Below, piece by piece: positions 31,540 to 62,125 of a DNA stretch of 64,000 bases (its first letter is position 1; each line of letters opens with the position of its first letter). Both the position numbers and the translations under genes were made by a program. Source of the DNA: an uncultured Verrucomicrobiae bacterium (GTDB lineage Bacteria > Verrucomicrobiota > Verrucomicrobiia > Chthoniobacterales > UBA10450); NCBI GenBank assembly GCA_963846775.1, contig CAWJXB010000006.1:1702990-1766989 (forward strand), read 5' to 3'. The notes below the pieces were generated by a model that was given only the letters and a program-made list of their open reading frames with translations, did no database searches and was not told where the DNA came from.

Positions 31540-31595
31540 TTCGCGTCAATTTTAACGTTCAACCTGAACGCTCAACGTCCAATGCTCAAAAAAAG
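31540..31595. repeat. degenerate tandem repeat (CGYTCAA-N-AA, period ~13) in convergent intergenic region
   Basis: cgtcaattttaa cgttcaacctgaa cgctcaacgtccaa tgctcaaaaaaa. Confidence 0.4.
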
Positions 31596-31607: not shown

Positions 31608-32393
31608 CTATGCTGCGGGCGGTTCGCTCTTTCTTATTAATGGCGTAAAGATGTCGATGGGGATCGGCAGAAATGTCGTCGTGTTATGCTCGCTGGAAAT
31701 TTCGCGCATCGTCTGAAGGAAGCGCAATTGCAGCGCGATCGGTTCCTTGCTCATCATCGCCGCCGCCTGCACCATTTTCTCCGCCGCTTGAAATTCGCCT
31801 TCGGCGTTAACGATCTTGGCCCGGCGCTCCCGCTCGGCCTCGGCTTGTTTGGCCATGGCGCGCTTCATCGTATCGGGTAGCGCAACGTCTTTTACTTCGA
31901 CAGCGGTAACTTTGATGCCCCAGGGATCGGTTTGCCGATCAATGATCTCCTGCAACGTCATGTTGATCTTCTCGCGGTGGGCCAGCAGCTCATCCAGCTC
32001 GGCCTGACCCAGCACGCTCCGCAAGGTCGTCTGGGCGATCAGCGAGCTGGCTTTCAGAAAATTTTCCACTTTCACCACAGCCGCTTCCGGATCGACCACA
32101 CGAAAGTAGAGAACCGCATCCACGCTCACCGGCACGTTATCGCGGGTCATGACTTCCTGCCGAGGCACGTCGATGGTGACCACGCGCAGATCCATGCGCA
32201 CCATACGATCGACAATCGGGATAAGGAAAATCAAGCCCGGTCCTTTTGCGCCTAACAACTTTCCAAGCCGAAAAATCACGCCCCTCTCGTATTCGCGCAG
32301 AATTCGGATGGCTTGCGGCAAAATAATGATGGCAAGAATAACGAGCGGCACAGCCCAACTGATGATCCGCGGCAAAGCTTCGATCGGTGACAT
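31608..32393 (-). CDS. SPFH/band-7 (stomatin-like) family protein
   Basis: N-terminal TM anchor, SPFH core (REYERGVIFRLGK...), coiled-coil C-terminus, 261 aa. Confidence 0.85.
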   Translation of the reverse strand: MSPIEALPRIISWAVPLVILAIIILPQAIRILREYERGVIFRLGKLLGAKGPGLIFLIPIVDRMVRMDLRVVTIDVPRQEVMTRDNVPVSVDAVLYFRVVDPEAAVVKVENFLKASSLIAQTTLRSVLGQAELDELLAHREKINMTLQEIIDRQTDPWGIKVTAVEVKDVALPDTMKRAMAKQAEAERERRAKIVNAEGEFQAAEKMVQAAAMMSKEPIALQLRFLQTMREISSEHNTTTFLPIPIDIFTPLIRKSEPPAA

Positions 32394-32516
32394 GGCTTAT
32401 CCTCCTGTAGTTGAGGAAAGTCAGACACGAATTGCACAAATTGTCACGAATCTTCGGCGGGTGACCCGCTGGAACCAGTCGTCCGGATTCGTGAAATCCG
32501 TGGCACGCCGAGCGAC

Positions 32517-32996
32517 TCAGCGAGCATCGTAAACAAACGGTACTCGGACTTTAGCCGCTACCGGTTTTCCGTTTTTCTTGGCCGGCTCGAATTTCCAATA
32601 CTGAACGGCTCGGATCGCATGGGTGGCAAAGAAGTGGTAAGTCGCGCCGATTATGACGAAGTCTCTCGTATTTCCCTTCTCGTCGATCGTGAAGCCGATC
32701 ACGGCGGCGCCGGGGTTACCCTTTCTTAATTGCGCAATCGGATAGGCCGGGGCTTCTCCGCTGATAAATCGCGGCGGTATGTCAAACTGGTGCGATGTCG
32801 CGCCCATGTATTGCATTCGCGCCGCTGGGATGGCGTGACCCTCCCTGGTTGGCGGTCGGTGTTCCGACAAATAGTCGGCGACCATCTTTCTGAGTTCCTC
32901 ACGTGGAATCGTAGGATCGGCCTGCGACTTAGGCTCAGCCACCGCGGTGGCGCCCACTGCCAGTCCAATAATCATACATACACAAGAGATCTTCAC
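32517..32996 (-). CDS. secreted TonB C-terminal-domain protein
   Basis: GTG start gives the signal peptide MKISCVCMIIGLAVGATAVA. The C-terminal ~90 aa resemble the TonB_C fold and are paralogous to the C-terminal module of the adjacent rmlA ORF. Confidence 0.5.
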   Translation of the reverse strand: MKISCVCMIIGLAVGATAVAEPKSQADPTIPREELRKMVADYLSEHRPPTREGHAIPAARMQYMGATSHQFDIPPRFISGEAPAYPIAQLRKGNPGAAVIGFTIDEKGNTRDFVIIGATYHFFATHAIRAVQYWKFEPAKKNGKPVAAKVRVPFVYDAR

Positions 32997-33203
32997 GAGA
33001 TGTGAGTTTAGACTATGGAATTCGCACATGAAGCTGTCAGGGGTCAATTTGGACGCGGCATGGTTTGATCTTCCGTTGACTCCAATTTCGCCGGCTGCCG
33101 GCAGTTTGAGAAGGAGAACAGTCACCGCGGCTGCGGACACCAGCGGTGGGGACAGGGGTGTGTTCGCCTTTGGGCAGCTATCGATGACGCCCATCGATCT
33201 AGC

Positions 33204-34478
33204 TTACTTATCTACCCAGATTGGATACTCGACGACGACGGCGGAATTACCTGAAAGGAAGAATTTGATGGGAACCCAGACTTTGCTGACAGTGTGCGGC
33301 TTGAATCTCCATTGTAGGAGCGCCTGGACCGCAGCCTGATCGAGTATTTTGCTGCGTGTGCTGACTCCCATCTCTGCCTTGACAACATGGCCAGTTGCGG
33401 CGTCGATCGTTAGCATGGCAATCCCCGCTCCTGATTGACCTTTTTCGCGCGCGGCGCTCGGATATGCCGGATCTCGCACATAAAGCGCCAACTCGTCGGA
33501 TTCCTGCTTAGTGAGCTCAACAGGTTTAGCCCGTATGGGTTCCGCTGCGACGCAGAATGCAGTGAGGAACAGAGACAATTTAGACAAACGAGCATTCATG
33601 CCGTTTTCGGCCCTTCGGGTACTAACCATTTCAAGGTAACTGCGGTATTCGCCTTTCGGCAAGCGTCCGATGGCAGCGGATAGCTGGGCTTGATCGATGA
33701 AGCCCATGCGGAACGCGACTTCTTCCAGGCAGGCAATCTTCAGGCCTTGTCGATGTTCGATTGTAGCGATGTAATTGCCGGCTTCGAGCAAGCTCGTTTG
33801 CGTCCCGGTGTCGAGCCAGGCCATGCCACGGCCTAACAATTTTACATTGAGCTCACCGCGTTGGAGGTAAAGCAGATTCAGATCGGTGATCTCTAGTTCG
33901 CCGCGCGCTGACGCCCGTAGCGAACGCGCAAGATCGACCACGCGTTCGTCGTAAACATAGAGGCCGGGCACGGCGAAATGGCTCTTCGGCTGTTTCGGTT
34001 TTTCCTCGAGACTGATCGCTTTGCCGGCGGCGTCGAACTCGACTACGCCGTATCGCTCGGGATCACGCACTTGATAGCCGAAAATGCAGGCGCCGCGCTG
34101 GATGGCGAGCGCTTCGCGGAAAAAATCGAGTTTGCCATAGAAGATGTTGTCGCCCAGGATGAGCGCCGCACCGCAATCGCCGAGGAACTTTGCGCCGATC
34201 AGAAACGCCTGCGCGATCCCCTCCGGCTTCGGTTGCTCGGCGTAATCGAGACGGATGCCGAATTGCGAGCCGTTGCCAAGAAAATCGCGGAGCACAGGCA
34301 GATCTTTCGGCGTGGAAATGATCAAGATCTCGCGCAACCCGCAAAGCATGAGCGTGGCTAACGGATAACAAATCATCGGCTTGTCATAGACCGGCAAGAG
34401 CTGTTTGCAGACGATCTTGGTGATTGGGTAAAGACGCGTCCCCGCGCCGCCGGCAAGCAAGATGGCCTTCTTATTCAC
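33204..34478 (-). CDS. rfbA: glucose-1-phosphate thymidylyltransferase RmlA, read through in frame into a C-terminal signal-peptide + TonB-C-like module
   Basis: The first ~290 aa are canonical RmlA (MNKKAILLAGGAGTRLYPITK..., GRGMAWLDTGT). There is no stop where RmlA normally ends. The frame continues into MNARLSKLSLFLTAFCVAAEP..., a 131-aa signal-peptide + TonB_C-like unit. Confidence 0.8.
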   Translation of the reverse strand: MNKKAILLAGGAGTRLYPITKIVCKQLLPVYDKPMICYPLATLMLCGLREILIISTPKDLPVLRDFLGNGSQFGIRLDYAEQPKPEGIAQAFLIGAKFLGDCGAALILGDNIFYGKLDFFREALAIQRGACIFGYQVRDPERYGVVEFDAAGKAISLEEKPKQPKSHFAVPGLYVYDERVVDLARSLRASARGELEITDLNLLYLQRGELNVKLLGRGMAWLDTGTQTSLLEAGNYIATIEHRQGLKIACLEEVAFRMGFIDQAQLSAAIGRLPKGEYRSYLEMVSTRRAENGMNARLSKLSLFLTAFCVAAEPIRAKPVELTKQESDELALYVRDPAYPSAAREKGQSGAGIAMLTIDAATGHVVKAEMGVSTRSKILDQAAVQALLQWRFKPHTVSKVWVPIKFFLSGNSAVVVEYPIWVDK

Positions 34479-35599
34479 GGCTGAGGCCTCCCGGTTTCTC
34501 TGGCCGATTTAATTCCGATCTTTCGACCGAGCCGCAACCACCGCGATTCGCGCCACAGTCTTCGCACGGCCGACAACTCTGCTTTTGCCTCATTGAGCTC
34601 GCCTCGCAGCCGCAAATACTTTTGCTCGAGTCCAGCGCCGAACTGCGTCCCACTGACATGAAGATCCACCAAAAACCGGTTTGGAAATTCGCTCGCTTCG
34701 CTAAATTTCATCATTGTCTTGATGTGTGCCTGCACCTGGTCGCGAGGGCATTTGCTGAGCACGTGAGCAATGAGTGAGATGAAGAGATCAGCGCGAAAGC
34801 TTGATATGTTGCTCCAAGCCGCGCGCTGGTAAGCAGCAAGGGCCCGCCGCAAATCGAGTGAATCGGCAAGCTCCGGCGCGAGCGCAACCAGAAGATCCAC
34901 ATTCATCTCCATCAGTTCGCGCACAAGTGCTTCTGGCGGGGCCGAAATTGTGTTCGCCGAATGCACGCGATACGACAATAGCTCCTCATCGAGCACCGCG
35001 AGGCGGTCGTGCAACGCGCAATCGAGCAGAAAAAAGTAATCGTGAGCGTAGCGATATGATCGAAACGGGTGCTCGAGAAAGTATGTTCTACGTCCGGTAA
35101 GATTGCTGGTCGAAGCCAAAAAATTGGCCACGCCGAGCTGCTCGACGAGATCAAGTGATGAGCCGTGAATCGACCACGCGGCGGCGAACCACTTGGCCGA
35201 CGGATCAGAGGCGGCCAACTCGCGCCCGGCGCTATCGATCAGCTTTAGCCTGGTCGTGACTACATCGATCGCAGGCATCTCGTTCAGAAACGCCACACAT
35301 TTGGAAATACGCTCGCGGGCAAAGACATCGTCGGAGTTGAGGATGGCAACATAATCGCATCCGGCAGCCATCTCGATCCCGCGGTTGATCGCGGCGTGGG
35401 CACCCGCGTTCGGCTGCGTGTGCAATTCAATCCGCGGTTCCGCGAACGCGCGCACGATTTCGACTGAATCGTCAGTCGAGCCGTCATCGACGATTACAAT
35501 CTTATCGACGGTCTGCATCTGGGCGAGGACCGATCGGATCGCATCACCAATGTAGGCAGCGTGATTGTAGAGTGGAATGACGACAGCAATTTGTTTCAT
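34475..35599 (-). CDS. glycosyltransferase family 2
   Basis: GT-A fold motifs (VVIPLYNHAAYIGDAIRSVLAQ, DDGSTDDS, DxD). Start at the internal ATG (MKQIAVVIP). Confidence 0.8.
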   Translation of the reverse strand: MKQIAVVIPLYNHAAYIGDAIRSVLAQMQTVDKIVIVDDGSTDDSVEIVRAFAEPRIELHTQPNAGAHAAINRGIEMAAGCDYVAILNSDDVFARERISKCVAFLNEMPAIDVVTTRLKLIDSAGRELAASDPSAKWFAAAWSIHGSSLDLVEQLGVANFLASTSNLTGRRTYFLEHPFRSYRYAHDYFFLLDCALHDRLAVLDEELLSYRVHSANTISAPPEALVRELMEMNVDLLVALAPELADSLDLRRALAAYQRAAWSNISSFRADLFISLIAHVLSKCPRDQVQAHIKTMMKFSEASEFPNRFLVDLHVSGTQFGAGLEQKYLRLRGELNEAKAELSAVRRLWRESRWLRLGRKIGIKSARETGRPQP

Positions 35600-35719
35600 C
35601 GGCTCCACGTCTCGAGCTGATTGCGCCATTGTTGAAGAAACTCCTCCCGGATGTGTCCCTCTCTTGGACCAAATGGCCCGCGCCAGCGCGGCGGCTTCGG
35701 CTCTACAATGAAGCGACCG

Positions 35720-37468
35720 TCAAAATGGGCGCGGATTTTCGGGTCCGCAACACGACCGCCAGGTACAGATCGGTAGCAGGCGTTGCAGCACGTTTGACGG
35801 AAACGCCGGAGGGGACTCAATCGTCGCGCTGATCGTGACTTTTGCGAGACGCTGCAAGATCCATGCACAGAGCAAAGCGCGTGAATCTGTCGCGTGCACG
35901 TGGCGGATGCCCGCGCGCACAAGTTTCGGGCCAAGATAAAGGGCGACGCGGGCCGCTTCGAGATAATCGGCGGTCGGGCACACGCTCGGAAGCTCACGCC
36001 GCCAGCTCTCCACTTCATGCGCGCGCGCGCGATCCGCAAGCCATTCCGCTTCGATCACGAGCGCATCCGGCAAAAATTCCAGAGCGCGTACGAGATGCGC
36101 AGATCCCTTGGCTGGCGAAATTGAGCCTGAGCGCCAGACGTAAATCGGCGCACCCGCCAGAGTCATGAGCTCGCGATCCAACCCCGGCAATTTCCGATTA
36201 GGCCATTCCCAGACGAGATGGGCGCAGTGCTGCAACTGCGGCCTTGGAGGTTGAAAGGCAGCTGGCGGGACCGCGGCAGCTTCAAAAAGCTTCAAGAGCT
36301 GGGCGGCGGTTTTATCGACATCGAATGTTTCTTCGACCGTGCGCCTGCCTGCCGCGCCCAGTCTGGCCCGGAGTTGCCGATCGCCTAACAGCGATTCGAG
36401 CGCATTGGCGAGCCCCTCAACATCTCCCGGGGTAACGAGCAGGCCGTTCTCCCCATCCCGGACCATTTCCGGAACGCCTGCCAGTCGCGCCGAGACAACC
36501 GGCCGCGCGGTAGCCATGGCTTCAAGAATCACGGTCGGTAAAATGTCATTTGCGCCTTCGCGACTGACAGTACAGGCAAGAGCAAAAACATCTGAATCGA
36601 TCAGGCGATCCACCACTTCTTCCTGCGGTAGCGATCCTAGCAGCCGAACGAAACCGTCCAGGCCCGCCTCAGTAATTGCGCTTTGCAGCGCGTCCCGCAA
36701 CGGCCCCTCGCCGATGATTTCGCATTCAAATTCGAGGCCACGCTTTTTCAGGTCGGCGCAAGCGGAAATCAGGTGGCGAAAGCCTTTAAACTCGACCAAG
36801 CGGCCAATACTCAAGATGCGCGGCCGCAAATCAGGCAATCTCGGCGGAGCGGGTTTGAACTTTCGCAAATCGATGCCGTTATACACGCAGTGAATCTTTC
36901 CGGCCGCGTCCGGACATTTCTGGAGGATTAACTTGCGACTGTAGTCGCTCACGGCAATAACGAACGCAGCTTCGCGGCACATTTCACGCAGCAGCTCGTC
37001 GCTACCGACATCGAGCATGAAGTCCTGCGCGTGCGCGGTGAAGCTGAACCCGATCTTGCTGATCGCTTTGACGAACAGGGCGGTGTGGGTGGCATGGCTG
37101 GCGAAATGAACGTGAAAATGCGCGATGCCACTGCGAACGAAATGTTCGGAAAAAAAAAGCGCATTAAGCGCGCGTTGCTCGGCTTTGAAGCTCGGGCCAT
37201 ATCGTGCCTCGTGTTCCGCGACAAGAGCGGCAGGCCAGATGCCATCGCGGCGTGCCAGCTGTCCCATTAGCCGCACCACTTCCGGAGGCGGCGCGTAGCG
37301 AATTTCCGCGCGCAAATTCGCCCTGTGTCCATGACGAAGACTCGTGAACGGCGGATGGAACGAGCCAATTTCGAGCTCCACGCCTTGCCGCTCTAGGGCG
37401 AGCATTTCAGTATCGCAGAACGTCTGCGAAATCACTGGATATCGCGAGTAGAGGTATCCAAGGCGCAT
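35720..37468 (-). CDS. glycosyltransferase family 4 (GT-B) with ~180-aa C-terminal extension
   Basis: GT4 donor-binding region (EGFGLP-like: EAMATARPVVSARLAGVPEMV), 582 aa. Confidence 0.75.
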   Translation of the reverse strand: MRLGYLYSRYPVISQTFCDTEMLALERQGVELEIGSFHPPFTSLRHGHRANLRAEIRYAPPPEVVRLMGQLARRDGIWPAALVAEHEARYGPSFKAEQRALNALFFSEHFVRSGIAHFHVHFASHATHTALFVKAISKIGFSFTAHAQDFMLDVGSDELLREMCREAAFVIAVSDYSRKLILQKCPDAAGKIHCVYNGIDLRKFKPAPPRLPDLRPRILSIGRLVEFKGFRHLISACADLKKRGLEFECEIIGEGPLRDALQSAITEAGLDGFVRLLGSLPQEEVVDRLIDSDVFALACTVSREGANDILPTVILEAMATARPVVSARLAGVPEMVRDGENGLLVTPGDVEGLANALESLLGDRQLRARLGAAGRRTVEETFDVDKTAAQLLKLFEAAAVPPAAFQPPRPQLQHCAHLVWEWPNRKLPGLDRELMTLAGAPIYVWRSGSISPAKGSAHLVRALEFLPDALVIEAEWLADRARAHEVESWRRELPSVCPTADYLEAARVALYLGPKLVRAGIRHVHATDSRALLCAWILQRLAKVTISATIESPPAFPSNVLQRLLPICTWRSCCGPENPRPF

Positions 37469-37834: not shown

Positions 37835-37961
37835 GAAAGCTAAAGCTATTAGGCGGTTCAGGTGGAACGCGCAAGCAGGAATCAGAAGCTTGGGCAGTTC
37901 TCCATTATTGGATCGCCTTTTGTTCAGCGGGAAATTAAGTCTGAGTCGCCCCTAGCCGAAA

Positions 37962-39092
37962 ATGAAAGTGATCGCGATCATCAAGAGCAAATTGAGCCGA
38001 GCCGCAGGACTATTGCCGCACGATGATTGGCTCGCGCTCGGCTGGGTGTTGGCGATCAAGCTTCTGCTTCTCATCTTTGGCATAAGAAGTTTTCAAACGC
38101 TTGGAAATAGTGTCGCCCCGGGCTGGCTAGAAATCTGGAACCGCTGGGATTCGATTCATTACCTCGACGTCGCCCAATTTGGTTATCGCTCGTCGAGCAC
38201 GCTCAAAGCCTGGTTCTATCCATTGTTTCCGTGGTTGACCCGGGCAGTGGCGTGGATCACCGGGAATTATCTTGCGAGCGCTTTCATCGTTTCGGGCGCG
38301 GCCCTCCTGATTGCGGCCATCCTCTTGCGCCGGCTCGTTCAACTCGACTATCCACCAGACGTCGCCCGGCGCGCTGTCTGGTTCTTCCTCATTTTCCCGA
38401 CTGCATATTTTCTCCACATTGGCTACAGCGAAAGCCTTTTTCTCGCGCTCGCGCTCGGATCAATCTTTGCGGCGCGACGCGGGAGATGGTGGCCGGCGGG
38501 AGCCCTCGGGGCGCTGGCGTGGGCGACTCGTCCCACCGGAATCGTTCTCGTGCCGACCCTCGCCGTGGAAGCTGCCCACCAATTGATCACTACGAAACGC
38601 TGGAACTGGGGCTGGCTCTGGATCGGATTCGTGCCGCTCGGGTTCGCCGCGTATCTTTTCCTCAATTGGAAAGTCTCAGGCGAGCCGTTCGCATTTCTGC
38701 AAATGCGCAAACCGCTTTTTGCGATGTCGTTCGCCTGGCCTTGGGTTGGAATCCGCGAAGCGATCGGGAATCTGCGTCGTCCGCCAAATGACGCCGAGAT
38801 AGTCGGTGCCCAGGAATTGTATTTCGTCGCCCTCAGCTTTGTTTGCCTGGTTGTCAGTTGGATTAAGCTGCGGCCGCTTTACGCCGTCTGGATGACTGGA
38901 AACTGGCTGTTGTTCACCTGTGTTACCTTCATCGAAAGCGCGCCACGCTACGCGGTCACGCTTTTCCCAATTTTCATCCTATTCGCGCTGCTCGCGAAGA
39001 ACCGCTTCTGGAACGGGATCATTACTGTGTGGTCGGTTTTATTTCTTGCTCTCTTTGTCAGCCTTTTTGTCCGCGGCTGGTGGGCGTTTTAG
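37962..39092 (+). CDS. GT-C-fold membrane glycosyltransferase (putative mannosyltransferase)
   Basis: 376 aa, ~10 TM helices, conserved acidic/aromatic first loop (WDSIHYLDVAQFGY). Resembles the PIG-V/DUF2029/GT87-type mannosyltransferases. Confidence 0.5.
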   Translation: MKVIAIIKSKLSRAAGLLPHDDWLALGWVLAIKLLLLIFGIRSFQTLGNSVAPGWLEIWNRWDSIHYLDVAQFGYRSSSTLKAWFYPLFPWLTRAVAWITGNYLASAFIVSGAALLIAAILLRRLVQLDYPPDVARRAVWFFLIFPTAYFLHIGYSESLFLALALGSIFAARRGRWWPAGALGALAWATRPTGIVLVPTLAVEAAHQLITTKRWNWGWLWIGFVPLGFAAYLFLNWKVSGEPFAFLQMRKPLFAMSFAWPWVGIREAIGNLRRPPNDAEIVGAQELYFVALSFVCLVVSWIKLRPLYAVWMTGNWLLFTCVTFIESAPRYAVTLFPIFILFALLAKNRFWNGIITVWSVLFLALFVSLFVRGWWAF

Positions 39093-41331: not shown

Positions 41332-41577
41332 GGGCCTCCCAGCCGCTACGCACCGCCTGGCGGCTAGGAAAGCCGTCGAGTGGGAGGCCGCAGTTTCGCC
41401 AGGGTCGACATGATCCAAAGTTCCCAACGTAGTTGCGAAACGATTGGTCGGCACGACTGAGAATAAGCGCGCTTGGAGCAACATAGGGTGTTGCATCGAA
41501 TACGGCCTCTGCCTGAGCGCAGCCTTGGCCGCGGTTCGCGGTTGCTAGGGCGCGCAAAGAGGGTTACAAACTGCACC

Positions 41578-42261
41578 GTGATTGACTATATCCAGAAGGG
41601 CGGATTGCTGATGTGGCCAATTCTGGTCTGCAGCATCATCGCCATCGCCGTTTTTTTAGAGCGACTTTTTTATTTTCACCGCGCGACGATTCACGTCGGC
41701 GAGTTTTTGAAGGGACTGTCGAACTTGATTCAGCGTCGGAATTTTGCCGAGGCTTTGCATGAATCGGCCGGGACGCCGGGGCCGGTGGCGCGGGTGATTC
41801 ATGCGGCCATTATCCGGCACGATGCACCGCGGACGGAGCTGCGCGACATCGTGCAGGAAGCGGGACAACTGGAAGTGCCGAAGCTGGAGCGCTTCCTCGG
41901 TGTGCTGTCGACGATCGCGTTTCTCGCGCCGCTCCTTGGCTTGTTAGGCACGGTCGCGGGCATGATCGACGCGTTTGGCACGATTTCAGCGAGCGGTGGT
42001 TATGTAACCGTGACCGAGCTTTCCCGCGGCATTTACAAGAGTTTGCTCACCACGGCCGCTGGTCTCGTCGTCGCGACGCCTACGTTTGTGGCCTATAGTT
42101 ATCTCTCGTCGCGTGTTACGACGATGTTGCACGACATGGAACGCGCTGGGATCGAGATCGTTCACATGTTGACGGAAAGCCGGCCGATCAGCGGCATTAT
42201 CAGCTTCCAGCAGCCCGATGAAGCAGCTGCGCGTGAGCGCGAGGCACGGCAGGATCTTTAA
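41578..42261 (+). CDS. exbB: MotA/TolQ/ExbB proton-channel family protein
   Basis: 3 TM helices and the conserved C-terminal TM2/TM3 region (LGLLGTVAGMIDAF). GTG start chosen; an ATG at 41611 is also possible. Confidence 0.8.
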   Translation: MIDYIQKGGLLMWPILVCSIIAIAVFLERLFYFHRATIHVGEFLKGLSNLIQRRNFAEALHESAGTPGPVARVIHAAIIRHDAPRTELRDIVQEAGQLEVPKLERFLGVLSTIAFLAPLLGLLGTVAGMIDAFGTISASGGYVTVTELSRGIYKSLLTTAAGLVVATPTFVAYSYLSSRVTTMLHDMERAGIEIVHMLTESRPISGIISFQQPDEAAAREREARQDL

Positions 42262-42380
42262 CCACGAATCAACACGAATTGAGAGTTTCAAGCATTTCCC
42301 GGGAAGCTTTCAGCTTCCCCATCGGGAGCTATCTTCCATTCGCGTTGATTGGTGTCCATTAGTCATTAATTCAGCGCGAC

Positions 42381-42785
42381 ATGAAGCTCATTCGCACAAA
42401 AAATTACCACTTCGGCTGGCTGGTTGTTTGTCCGCTGCTCGACATCGCTTTTTTGATGGTGTTTTTCCTCCTGCTCAGCTCGCATTTTCTTTTGCAGCAG
42501 GGCGTTTCGGTCTCGATGCCGTTATCGCGGTTTGTCCTGGGGCCGCAATTGAACCAGCAAATCATTAGCATCACCGGTGGCGCGTCGCCCGCGATTTATT
42601 TTCGTGAACAACGAGTCACACTCGAACAACTCGGGCCGATGCTCGACGCGGCCAAACGCGACGGGCAATCGATCATCATTAAGGCGGATCGGCTGACGCC
42701 GTACGAATTGGTGGTCGAAGTTACGAACGCGGCGCTGGAGCACGGGATTACCTCCGTAGCCTTGGCTGGAGTGCCGCCGCAATGA
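42381..42785 (+). CDS. exbD: biopolymer transport protein ExbD/TolR
   Basis: Single N-terminal TM then a periplasmic domain, 134 aa. Confidence 0.8.
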   Translation: MKLIRTKNYHFGWLVVCPLLDIAFLMVFFLLLSSHFLLQQGVSVSMPLSRFVLGPQLNQQIISITGGASPAIYFREQRVTLEQLGPMLDAAKRDGQSIIIKADRLTPYELVVEVTNAALEHGITSVALAGVPPQ

Positions 42786-42860
42786 ATGCGTTTGTCGTCG
42801 GGATTGTTCGGTCAGCGCTGAGGAGGCATCATCTTCCGCTACCGTCGGCGGGACAGCTTT

Positions 42861-43658
42861 GTGTTTGCCATGAATGGGATGGCTAATTTCCCGCTTCTTT
42901 TTCAATGGGAACCGCCACGTGCACGGCGAGGAGCGATCATTCTTTTTTTGATTCTATCGCTGTTGGCGCATGCATTCTGTTTTTACCTGTTTCAGGTTGT
43001 TTATCCGCCAACGGTCGCGCTTTTGCCGCCGCCGGCGCGGGTTAGTTTGATCGCGGCTCATTCCGCGGAAGGTCAGACCCTGCTGTCCTGGATTGAATCG
43101 GAGGACCCGGCGCTGGCGTTTACGACCGTGCGTCCAACTGAAGGAAAACTTCGCGCATTGCCGAAGATAGCGCACGTCCCTTCGTATCGGACGCATCAGC
43201 CGATGCTAAAAGAAGCGCCGCCACTGGCTGTCGATATCAACCCGCCGAGCACGCGACCACCGGCGCCGATTCCGATCGTGCGTCGGAATGTCGAGCCCTT
43301 AACCAATCAAAAGATCCCGACGACGATTTCGTTTTCGGATGAGCTAAGTTCGTTAGGCGCTGCCATCATGCCGCCGTTCAAGCTCACCGCGAGCAATACG
43401 GAAGCGCCGCAAAACATGCGATTTCGCGTCGCCGTCGCTCCTGGCGGCGAAGTGCATTATTGTTTCCCTCTCACCAGTTCTGGCGACGCGGCCCTGGACG
43501 AACAAGCGCGCCAGGCCATCGCGCTTTGTCGGTTCCCGGGAACAACCAATCATCGACCGCCCACGGCCAACGCGCTGGTTTGGGGAATCGTCACTCTCGA
43601 TTGGGGCAATGATGTTGCGCCACCGTCCGCCCCACCGACATCCGCCCCGATTCGTTAA
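42861..43658 (+). CDS. TonB-like energy transducer (divergent)
   Basis: N-terminal TM anchor, Pro-rich spacer, C-terminal TonB_C-like domain. Directly downstream of exbBD. Confidence 0.6.
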   Translation: MFAMNGMANFPLLFQWEPPRARRGAIILFLILSLLAHAFCFYLFQVVYPPTVALLPPPARVSLIAAHSAEGQTLLSWIESEDPALAFTTVRPTEGKLRALPKIAHVPSYRTHQPMLKEAPPLAVDINPPSTRPPAPIPIVRRNVEPLTNQKIPTTISFSDELSSLGAAIMPPFKLTASNTEAPQNMRFRVAVAPGGEVHYCFPLTSSGDAALDEQARQAIALCRFPGTTNHRPPTANALVWGIVTLDWGNDVAPPSAPPTSAPIR

Positions 43659-43682
43659 CGACCTGGCCCGCGAGCATCGAGG

Positions 43683-43970
43683 TTGCGGTTTCGATTTCGC
43701 AAGCCGGGAGGCATGCGCTACTCTTCTCCCGTGATTCAAGTCAGTCTCACCGCGCTAATCACGATTTATTTGCTGCTTTTTCTTGCGGCGGTTTTCCTCC
43801 TCTGGATATTGGGGGAATGGAATCGCCGCCGGCGCGAACGTCGGGCCTTGCGCTATCGACTGCGCTGCGTGATTTGCGCGTTTGAGTTTGAAGATCGGAC
43901 CGACGCGCTGCTTCCGCGGTGTCCGCGCTGCGGCAGCCTAAACGAGCGATTCAAACTGGAACGAATTTGA
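43683..43970 (+). CDS. small membrane protein with C-terminal CxxC...CxxC zinc ribbon, hypothetical
   Basis: One TM helix then CVIC...CPRC. True start is probably the internal Met (MRYSSP). Confidence 0.35.
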   Translation: MRFRFRKPGGMRYSSPVIQVSLTALITIYLLLFLAAVFLLWILGEWNRRRRERRALRYRLRCVICAFEFEDRTDALLPRCPRCGSLNERFKLERI

Positions 43971-47032: not shown

Positions 47033-47700
47033 GGGGAAGCTTCCTTCTCTTCCGCAGCGCCATGCTGCACTGGGATCGCCACCGGCGGCGGCGGAGTGTG
47101 CGGCAGATCACTTTGTTTGCTAAATTTATGAAGCAAAATCTGCGAAACCGCATTGAGGGCGGAGAATACGTTTTGTCCGGTACTGGAAATGGCCTCGAAA
47201 CTTTGTAATCGCTTCTTCCGGTTGTTCAGAGTGTATTCGAGATAATTGATCGGTGCGACATTCGGCAGATCCCGCTTGTTATACTGAAGCACGAGCGGTA
47301 TGTCGTCGATGTTGGCGTTTTGGAGGGCGAGATTCTCGCTCAGATTCTTGAAGCTTTCCACGTTCTCCTCCATTTTCTCCCATTGGGAATCGGCCACAAA
47401 AACGAGACCATCGGTGCTGCGCAACACGAGCTGGCGGGTAGCGTTGTAAATCACCTGACCCGGCACGGTATAGAGCTGGAACTTCGTCACGAAGCCTTTG
47501 ATCACGACCGCATTCAGCGGTAAAAAATCGAAGAACAAGGTACGGTCGGCAGCCGTGGCCAACGAAACCAGTTCGCCACGATTTTTCGGACTGATCCGCT
47601 GATGGATGTAAGCCAGGCTCGTCGTCTTCCCGCACAGCGCGGGCCCGTAGTAAACGATCTTGAATTGGATTTCGCGGCTGGCGTAATTAACGATCGACAT
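47029..47700 (-). CDS. mglA: Ras-like small GTPase MglA
   Basis: Near-colinear with Myxococcus MglA: (SIVNYASREI)QFKIVYYGPALCGKTT, TLFFDFLPL, LYTVPGQV, DGLVFVADSQ, LQYNKRDLPN. Start at the internal ATG (MSIVNY). Confidence 0.9.
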   Translation of the reverse strand: MSIVNYASREIQFKIVYYGPALCGKTTSLAYIHQRISPKNRGELVSLATAADRTLFFDFLPLNAVVIKGFVTKFQLYTVPGQVIYNATRQLVLRSTDGLVFVADSQWEKMEENVESFKNLSENLALQNANIDDIPLVLQYNKRDLPNVAPINYLEYTLNNRKKRLQSFEAISSTGQNVFSALNAVSQILLHKFSKQSDLPHTPPPPVAIPVQHGAAEEKEASP

Positions 47701-61277: not shown

Positions 61278-61610
61278 TCACTCGCGCCTCTGCTTTTCGA
61301 CGAGGTGGCGCAGCTGGCGTTCCATTGTCTTGAACGCGTCGTGGATGACTTTTTTAAGCGGTTCGTGTGAGCCGTTGTCGTTTTGTTGTTCATCGGCTAC
61401 GAGCTCGTGGCGCGGTCTCACCGTCACGTCGATTCGACAACGATAAGGGTTGCCTTTTTGATGGGTGTGATTGGTTTGCTCGATCGCGATATCACATCGG
61501 TTGATGTGGTCGCAAAAACGTTCCAATCTCGCGGCATAGTCGAGAATAGTACTCTCAATGAGATCGGATTTCTCCACCCCCCGATAGCTGATTTTCACTG
61601 GCAGTTGCAT
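61278..61610 (-). CDS. hpf: ribosome hibernation-promoting factor (HPF/RaiA family)
   Basis: 110 aa; MQLPVKISYRGVE... beta-alpha-beta-beta-beta-alpha pattern of the YfiA/HPF family. Confidence 0.75.
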   Translation of the reverse strand: MQLPVKISYRGVEKSDLIESTILDYAARLERFCDHINRCDIAIEQTNHTHQKGNPYRCRIDVTVRPRHELVADEQQNDNGSHEPLKKVIHDAFKTMERQLRHLVEKQRRE

Positions 61611-61657
61611 GCTCTAAGTTAAGCCGCATCGGCGCTAGTGAGAAGCGAAATTGTGCT

Positions 61658-62125
61658 TCAAATCTGCTGCAACGACCGGAAGTGCGACGTGAGTTTGGCC
61701 GGCTCGATCTTGACCAAGTCGGAATTCACGTGTTCCACGATGCGCTGGCGGACAGCCGCCGGCAGAAGATCGACAATCGCGTTGTGGATTTCCGCCGGCG
61801 CAGCAAGGGACCAGGCTTCCTTTCCGTTGCGCGAGACAACATCGACAATTCGATCGGCCAATTGTTTGCAGAGGCGCCGCTCCGTCTCCGTCTCCAATTG
61901 CGTTCGTTCGGCAATGGATCCGTGCCCATGATGCCCGCTCGCGCCATTGCTGACGCGGAACCGCCCCGCCTGGTCGGTCACTTTGTCGAGCAATCGGCCG
62001 TGGGCATCGGTCAGGTTCAATGCCTGGATAAGCTGGAGACTGGGGCCGCGAGTGGGAGTTTCATTAACACGGTAAGCTTTCAGACTGCCCCGATCTGTGA
62101 CGATCACTAAAGAAGTTGCTGTCAT
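61658..62125 (-). CDS. host-attachment-protein family (PF10116-like) protein
   Basis: Block-wise similarity to the Hap family (LVIVTDRGSLKAYRVNE; TDQAGRFRVSNGASGHHGHGS; SLAAPAEIHNAIVDLL). Confidence 0.5.
   Translation of the reverse strand: MTATSLVIVTDRGSLKAYRVNETPTRGPSLQLIQALNLTDAHGRLLDKVTDQAGRFRVSNGASGHHGHGSIAERTQLETETERRLCKQLADRIVDVVSRNGKEAWSLAAPAEIHNAIVDLLPAAVRQRIVEHVNSDLVKIEPAKLTSHFRSLQQI

Follow-up and report, generated by a model that had tools for sequence, protein, structure and literature searches.

One extra base accounts for an apparent RmlA–TonB_C fusion in a Verrucomicrobiota genome assembly

The question raised by this locus is whether the glucose-1-phosphate thymidylyltransferase RmlA of an uncultured Verrucomicrobiae bacterium is fused to a leader-bearing domain of the TonB C-terminal type, as the deposited sequence would have it. 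The stretch of DNA analyzed, referred to below as the window, comprises 64,000 nucleotides (nt) of contig CAWJXB010000006.1 (assembly GCA_963846775.1). Its minus strand carries an open reading frame (ORF) of 424 codons without a stop, in which rmlA reads through into a leader and TonB_C module, just as the original prediction had described from the sequence alone. That prediction offered two explanations, a lost stop codon or an internal translation start within rmlA, and it also raised the possibility of an error in the assembly, or of a frameshift, around 33600-33640. The last suspicion was well placed, as one extra C is found there, at 33617-33619. We conclude that the fusion of an enzyme to a putatively secreted domain comes down to a single additional base that one assembly carries, not to the biology of the organism, and that the native state of the locus is two genes under all three of the readings weighed here.

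The junction of rmlA and the small TonB_C gene

The fused ORF is composed of a complete RmlA, six odd residues, and then a module of 131 amino acids (aa) consisting of leader and TonB_C domain. Its residues 4-285 match positions 1-284 of the 286 in the RmlA equivalog profile TIGR01207 with 433 bits (cutoff, 360.65), and the Pfam family NTP_transferase is matched with 213 bits. Past the end of the RmlA match (...YLEMV), the frame runs on through STRRAENG up to an in-frame ATG at 33599-33597, which opens MNARLSKLSLFLTAFCVAAEPIRAKP..., and a TonB_C domain follows at residues 337-406 that scores above the cutoffs of both PF03544 (35 bits; cutoff, 24.6) and TIGR01352 (36.2 bits; cutoff, 27.1).

The comparison of orthologous rmlA 3' ends, which had been proposed as a check, gave a uniform result. 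The relatives used throughout (labeled L001, L005, and so on) are contigs, all from metagenome assemblies, and the junction was compared in eight of them that share 87-98.5% nucleotide identity with the window (L001, L005, L006, L007, L021, L022, L025, and L026). In all eight, rmlA ends in ...STEGPKTA and a stop, or in a close variant of it, and its TGA overlaps the start codon of a separate 131-aa gene. This start codon is GTG in L007 (overlap GTGA) and ATG in the other loci (overlap ATGA). In L001, for instance, the final four bases of an rmlA that encodes 293 aa are shared with the beginning of the 131-aa gene, and genes that are separate and overlap in this way are also present in L025 and L026, longer short-read contigs of 4.4 kb and 11.3 kb. 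None of these eight loci has the two genes in a single frame; the window alone does.

Aligned base by base at the junction, the window reads GTAGTACCCGAAGG and the relatives read GTA(G/T)TACCGAAGG, which leaves the window with one C more. The additional base lies six codons ahead of the rmlA stop and, from residue 288 on, makes rmlA continue in the reading frame of the 131-aa gene. The RmlA residues altered before the read-through are therefore 288-293 only (EGPKTA to RRAENG), and the native TGA persists in the window at 33598-33596, out of frame and overlapping the ATG. This contradicts the proposed loss of the stop codon: no stop codon was lost, and the fusion did not evolve. A stop changed by point mutation (for example, TGA to CGA) was likewise ruled out, as the alignments show an insertion with the native TGA intact. 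The ATG at 33597-33599 had been suggested as a translation start, and it is a genuine one; it is not internal to rmlA but is the conserved start of the stand-alone 131-aa gene in the closest relatives.

Protein databases give the same picture. A search with the module returned 16 close relatives (74-93% identity), all of them stand-alone proteins of 118-187 aa and most exactly 131 aa with the same initial Met, and no fusion to RmlA was present among 27 candidates for the module. Conversely, no RmlA plus TonB_C architecture occurs among the 120 best database matches of the 424-aa product, all of which are RmlA-only proteins of 290-326 aa. The RmlA of all relatives is a protein of 286-326 aa, and the window ORF departs from this stand-alone length of about 290 aa because of the one extra base. 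The 424-aa product is on record from one contig only, the 2,284,794-bp source of the window. When the RmlA is repaired by joining window residues 1-287 to EGPKTA, the resulting 293-aa protein is found exactly in a public short-read assembly (P0308; L025).

A more complex arrangement was observed in L008 (positions 1-2226), where one or more extra TonB_C-like genes are inserted between rmlA and the 131-aa gene and the last ~160 bp of rmlA are duplicated ahead of the latter. This is an old assembly with several apparent frameshifts and is hard to read.

When the native arrangement is placed into a translational context, a simple relationship between the two products can be proposed. ATGA overlaps in unidirectional bacterial gene pairs mediate termination-reinitiation coupling (Huber et al. 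2019, PMC6728339). The gene pair of rmlA (293 aa) and the small, putatively exported TonB_C-domain protein (131 aa), joined by such a four-base overlap, would thus have translation of its second member coupled to termination on the first. As stop/start overlaps of this kind support termination-reinitiation, the small protein is probably made by ribosomes that have just completed RmlA. The coordinates of all features discussed are collected in Table 1.

Table 1. Genes and insertions at the rmlA locus of the window
Feature	Position	Strand	Remarks
Fused ORF	33204..34478	-	424 aa; single open frame, 0 internal stops
rmlA (glucose-1-phosphate thymidylyltransferase), as in all relatives	33596..34478	-	GTG start at 34478; native TGA 33598-33596
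Gene of the 131-aa protein: hydrophobic leader (residues 1-24) and domain of predicted TonB C-terminal fold	33204..33599	-	ATG 33599-33597; TAA 33206-33204
Second leader and TonB_C gene	32517..33029	-	170 aa from ATG 33029; PF03544, 54 bits
GT2-family glycosyltransferase	34475..35629	-	stop overlaps rmlA start (GTGA)
GT4-family glycosyltransferase	35720..37468	-	582 aa in window; Pfam
SPFH/Band_7 membrane protein	31608..32393	-	Pfam; neighbor found most consistently beside the TonB_C gene(s) in relatives
CCC run with one extra C (CC in relatives)	33617..33619	-	directly after GTAC; alignments with L001, L005-L008, L021, L022, L025, L026
Second frame-changing insertion, CC (C in relatives)	35762..35763	-	directly after GTAC; private to window

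Consensus error or mutation

The GT4 glycosyltransferase gene has a second insertion of the same kind close to its 3' end, about 2.1 kb upstream of the rmlA junction. L024 is 99.95% identical to the window, with one substitution in 2139 bases, and the sole indel between the two is the extra C at 35762-35763, which is also seen against L025 and L026. The GT4 protein ends in the window with ...LLPICTWRSCCGPENPRPF and a stop, at 582 aa, whereas in L024, L025, and L026 it continues through ...LLPICTGGRVADPKIRAHFDGRF...FLQQWRNQLETWSR to a family-typical 623 aa and overlaps the GT2 start. The coding sequence for the missing 54-aa tail remains in the window, out of frame, as far as 35596. The long tail is conserved in nine homologues (72-82% identity), and in the 90% cluster of this protein the 582-aa form comes solely from the source contig, most listed members being 623 aa long.

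We consider it probable, at roughly 0.7, that the extra C at 33617-33619 is a consensus error of a long single-contig assembly, and we infer that both extra bases are technical errors and not mutations. As the source is a single contig of 2.28 Mb, the assembly was presumably built from long reads, and systematic homopolymer indels, together with errors concentrated at modified motifs, are a known feature of nanopore consensus sequences (PMC10687267).

The pattern of differences between the window and its relatives can be examined in this light. Across the 11.3 kb shared with L026, the window shows 98.5% identity, with 170 substitutions and four indels, all of them single bases in short runs. 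For three of these four, comparison with more than one relative showed them to be private to the window; the fourth, at 37952, is covered by L026 alone. Two are the coding insertions at 33617-33619 and 35762-35763, and two are intergenic (37952 and 33032). The first intergenic run reads GGGG instead of GGG on the minus strand at 37949-37952, about 10 nt upstream of an ATG at 37962, and the second reads TT instead of TTT at 33032-33033, just upstream of the ATG at 33029, as seen against L021, L022, and L026. Either of these two run-length differences could be real or an error. As a control, the block from GT4 through GT2 and rmlA to the TonB_C gene was compared among three short-read contigs from different samples, which show 26-84 substitutions and 0 indels in comparisons among themselves. 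Against each of the same three contigs, the window carries 1-4 private one-base indels. Short-read DNA that is 98.4-99.95% identical is present in runs ERR11523651, SRR28624380, and SRR16915468.

The two coding insertions also share a sequence context, both lying directly after GTAC (CTGTAC[C]TGG and TAGTAC[C]CGA). This tetramer occurs at 50 sites in the 64 kb, against ~240 expected from base composition, and under a second-order Markov model its observed/expected ratio of 0.56 is the lowest of all 256 tetramers. Homopolymer runs abut GTAC in 28 of 12,340 cases, so that the chance of both insertions doing so is about 5e-6, or about 1e-3 once any tetramer is allowed for. The strong avoidance of this palindrome, together with the position of both insertions, suggests pressure from a GTAC-specific restriction-modification system in this organism and hence, by a further step, a motif that may be modified.

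Several points weigh against a consensus error. The long-read origin of the assembly is deduced solely from the single 2.28-Mb contig, and ORF tiling found no split genes elsewhere in the 64-kb window. At four other G/C-flanked GTAC sites close to gene ends the sequence seems right, and thus a motif-linked error would touch only 2 of 28 such sites; there is also no enrichment of substitutions at GTAC. The motif-linked errors described in PMC10687267 are mostly mismatches and not insertions, and runs of two or three bases differ from the classic long-homopolymer error. The GTAC statistic concerns two events and was noticed post hoc, and two frameshifts in one operon would also fit early operon decay.

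Two wider forms of the problem were considered and set aside. Pervasive frameshifting in the window was ruled out by the ORF tiling, the one suspicious interval (42861-43970) consisting of separate genes. Further GTAC-linked frameshifts were sought by simulating the removal of a single base at the 28 G/C-flanked sites, and the four best candidates seem right as read.

The alternative that survives best is that the extra C is real, a very recent frameshift in this strain, which we regard as unlikely though well within reason. Ribosomes on rmlA would then miss the TGA and, instead of stopping, read on through the TonB_C gene to yield a 424-aa chimera, namely an RmlA with six altered residues and a 131-aa tail that holds an internal hydrophobic leader. 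The expected mass of this chimera is roughly 46 kDa, compared with 32 kDa for RmlA and about 11.5 kDa for the mature small protein. Termination-reinitiation coupling would be lost, and the small protein would be made, if at all, only by independent initiation at ATG 33599. Such initiation could be supported by a GAAGGG 11 nt upstream of this ATG, but ribosomes translating across the site would be expected to interfere. This is how the deposited sequence reads, and the annotation of the source includes the 424-aa product. Moreover, intact ORFs tile the rest of the window, which argues that the assembly is not grossly error-prone, and the entire RmlA profile is untouched, so that the enzyme could tolerate the change. 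A still more exotic reading would combine a real frameshift with an RmlA-leader-TonB_C chimera that the cell makes and uses.

Taken together with the truncated glycosyltransferase, a real frameshift would mark the onset of decay of the polysaccharide operon, and two disabling changes in one operon would fit relaxed selection following a first hit. No sign of relaxed constraint is present in the window lineage, however. Its rmlA differs from that of L025 by 13 synonymous and 0 non-synonymous changes, its GT2 gene has a ratio of non-synonymous to synonymous divergence (dN/dS) of 0.12, and its TonB_C module has a dN/dS of 0.25, with 3 private residues where other strains have 0-8. A real frameshift would, in addition, place one insertion on a branch along which only one substitution occurred in 2.1 kb, its neutral origin would not predict the common GTAC context of both insertions, and relatives at 1-2% divergence have no coding indels among themselves.

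CGA and AGG are often rare codons, able to pause ribosomes, and the fused frame is open across all 424 codons, but that the fusion is functional or programmed, whether as an evolved bifunctional RmlA-TonB_C or through recoding at ACC-CGA-AGG, where a fraction of the ribosomes would change frame to give both RmlA and the fusion, is extremely improbable for a state that, across billions of proteins, is known from one contig only, is not conserved in any of the eight relatives with their separate ATGA or GTGA arrangement, has no slippery heptamer at ACC-CGA-AGG, and would join a cytoplasmic tetrameric enzyme to a domain presumably exported via a signal peptide with no evident rationale.

Fold, leader, and spread of the small TonB_C proteins

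With the two genes separated, the 131-aa protein can be considered in its own right. It has, as modeled, the TonB C-terminal fold, a claim that holds because of both the AlphaFold model and its matches in the PDB. The model, made with 19 sequences, has a mean predicted local distance difference test score of 84.5, which exceeds 90 at residues ~30-115, and residues 1-22 are disordered. A Foldseek search placed C-terminal domains of TonB or of the TonB homologues FusB and HasB in all of the top 15 positions, the best match being TonB of N. meningitidis, with a root mean square deviation of 1.5 Å over 77 columns and a template modeling score of 0.81-0.83 normalized to the target. The TonB_C-like domain originally called from the sequence is therefore upheld both by scores above the cutoffs and by the structure prediction that had been suggested for it.

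From the ATG, the protein begins MNARLSK-LSLFLTAFCVAA-EPIRA, which by eye has the layout of a signal peptide: R4 and K7, a core from L8 to A19, and candidate cleavage points between V-A-A and E or between I-R-A and K. This segment is conserved in relatives and disordered in the model, and it may be a cleaved signal peptide of the Sec/SPase I type. Canonical TonB has instead an N-terminal transmembrane helix with an S-x3-H (SHLS) motor-binding motif, followed by a periplasm-spanning central region that is usually proline rich and has a median length of 113 residues, the shortest reported being ~40 (PMC12204202). No S-x3-H motif is present in the leader MNARLSKLSLFLTAFCVAAEPIRA, which has a 12-residue hydrophobic core and no histidine, and no proline-rich spacer is present in the 131-aa protein, the fold of which begins at residue ~27, about 7 residues past the leader. 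Neither exbB nor exbD adjoins the 131-aa gene, the nearest copies lying ~8 kb off at 41473-42785 on the plus strand together with their own TonB-like gene.

That plus-strand cluster (41473-43658) encodes ExbB (MotA_ExbB, 98 bits) and ExbD (60 bits), followed by a protein of 265 aa. The N-terminal helix of this protein contains S-x3-H (S-L-L-A-H), parts of its chain are rich in proline, and it matches TonB_C below the threshold (16 bits). It is probably the canonical motor-linked transducer of the region.

From the anatomy of the small TonB_C proteins, a motor-independent role in the periplasm, of the kind that the original prediction had in mind, is plausible. Canonical TonB engages the TonB boxes of outer-membrane transporters through strand addition. 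It could be speculated further that the small leader and TonB_C proteins act as free periplasmic binders of TonB boxes without ExbB/ExbD, as decoys or gatekeepers of outer-membrane receptors, and that the coupling of one of them to RmlA ties envelope-sugar synthesis to receptor gating; this would be a long shot, with the odds heavily against it.

Such proteins are not unusual but number in the thousands as short TonB_C-only proteins. An exhaustive search returned 2826 cluster representatives at E <= 1e-3, many of them one-domain proteins of 105-170 aa or two-domain proteins of ~210 aa. Some TonB_C-like relatives in the databases have 3-5 domains, and a 283-aa protein of a Verrucomicrobiae genome (L002, 3758-4609) has two tandem TonB_C-like domains, the first of which is 45% identical to the window module.

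The original prediction also placed a second gene of the same design at 32517-32996. A TonB_C gene is indeed present immediately downstream (54.2 bits with PF03544 and 40.2 bits with TIGR01352), and its start is ambiguous between ATG 33029 (170 aa, the call in relatives), GTG 32996, and ATG 32975 (152 aa, the call in the source genome). The view of the pair as a tandem duplication is not supported: the two copies share 29% identity across 58 residues, so they are old paralogues, and a recent tandem duplication was ruled out on that basis. The second copy is also variably present. L021 and L026 have it, and L001, L006, L007, and L008 lack it, with ~730 bp missing (32469-33195) at similar boundaries. 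In L005 a remnant of ~105 bp from its upstream part is left, and in L022 it is broken by a 79-nt deletion (75 nt plus 4 nt) inside the domain. This distribution across the contigs indicates a dispensable copy that is subject to presence/absence polymorphism.

The proposed link of these proteins to surface-polysaccharide genes is not a conserved one. In relatives at 76-81% identity, the TonB_C gene or genes lie beside Band_7 and a MacB-type efflux cluster and rmlA is absent upstream, so that the association with polysaccharide genes is specific to this clade. Within the clade, the first TonB_C copy evolves faster than its neighbors (dN/dS of 0.2-0.7, against 0.05 for rmlA), and 33204-33599 is a divergence hotspot against L026, with 46 substitutions per kb compared with 10-19 elsewhere. 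The 131-aa gene falls into two allele classes, window/L025/L001 and L021/L022/L026, between which synonymous divergence is 0.15-0.18, against 0.05 in the adjacent rmlA. An excess of this kind over rmlA suggests recombination or allelic exchange at the small gene.

Locus context and comparison with known systems

The GT4, GT2, rmlA, and 131-aa genes follow one another in the same direction on the minus strand, GT4 and GT2 overlapping by 34 nt (as seen in the relatives), GT2 and rmlA by 4 nt (GTGA), and rmlA and the 131-aa gene by 4 nt (ATGA), and the overlap of the GT2 stop with the rmlA start makes GT2 part of the same tightly packed operon. The remaining genes of the rhamnose pathway, rmlBCD, were not found nearby among the genes scanned. 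An Rfam scan of the entire window gave 0 hits, and scans for promoter and terminator consensus sequences gave nothing above chance. Names attached to close homologues of the encoded proteins point to a placement in Chthoniobacterales or Candidatus Udaeobacter, which are soil Verrucomicrobiota, whereas one scan of a genome collection yielded distant relatives only.

Three further loci in the window were noted. A 13-nt indel at 31553-31565, in the convergent intergenic region between an ABC ATPase gene and the Band_7 gene, distinguishes the window from L022 and L023, with L021 longer like the window. A 118-aa ORF at 47279-47635 on the minus strand has a third-position GC content of 0.34, compared with 0.6-0.75 for window genes, and matches no Pfam family; it could represent foreign DNA, or it could be no gene at all. 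Lastly, a Host_attach or bacterial eRF1-like gene (baeRF family 12) at 61278-62125 on the minus strand lies directly upstream of a Ribosomal_S30AE hibernation factor gene in the same orientation.

As a biological discovery, the fusion matters little. That both frame-changing insertions lie next to GTAC, inside 2.2 kb of a contig of 2.28 Mb, suggests a consensus error linked to this motif, and if this is true, other false fusions or truncations may be present in this genome and in similar assemblies. The most useful by-product of the analysis is accordingly a testable suspicion of GTAC-linked single-base insertions in this assembly. The small leader and TonB_C proteins make up a genuine family that is widespread but unstudied, fast evolving and variable in copy number in this soil Verrucomicrobiota clade.

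When the findings are set beside known systems, the closest parallel to the insertions is found in nanopore consensus errors (PMC10687267). The window resembles these in its single-base length changes in short runs, in their being private to one long-contig assembly, and in the recurrence of its indels next to one short, strongly depleted palindromic motif. It differs in that its runs are just 2-3 bases long, in that 2 of 28 comparable sites are hit, and in that the published motif-linked errors are mainly substitutions.

The protein products also have known counterparts. The 131-aa protein shares with the TonB C-terminal domains of N. meningitidis (9DDZ; 9DC4, chain T) and E. coli (1XX3 and 2GRX) the fold and the motifs P-x-YP, G-x-V, LD-x-AA, and W-x-F-x-P. 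It departs from TonB in having no S-x3-H helix, proline-rich spacer, or exbB/exbD neighbors, and from the TonB domain in its two extra C-terminal strands, within a total of 131 aa. The enzyme is a full-length match to RmlA/RfbA (TIGR01207, 433 bits) and 93-96% identical to the RmlA of close relatives, with the replacement of residues 288-293 and the 131 appended residues confined to the window version.

The arrangement of the genes is that of the ATGA pairs described in PMC6728339: every relative shows a four-base overlap between the rmlA TGA and the start codon that follows, which is ATG except for the GTG of L007, and the GT2-rmlA junction of the window is of the same type (GTGA). In the window the overlap is physically kept and the upstream frame misses the TGA by one extra base; the coupling itself is a predicted one. 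A comparable outcome is known from hsdM and hsdS, overlapping genes that were reportedly fused by engineering through removal of a frameshift (PMC3510504). There the change was deliberate and joined two subunits of one enzyme, whereas the partners in the window are unrelated and would work in different compartments. The hsdM and hsdS case shows that a one-base change of frame at an overlapped, translationally coupled gene pair suffices to produce a fused ORF.

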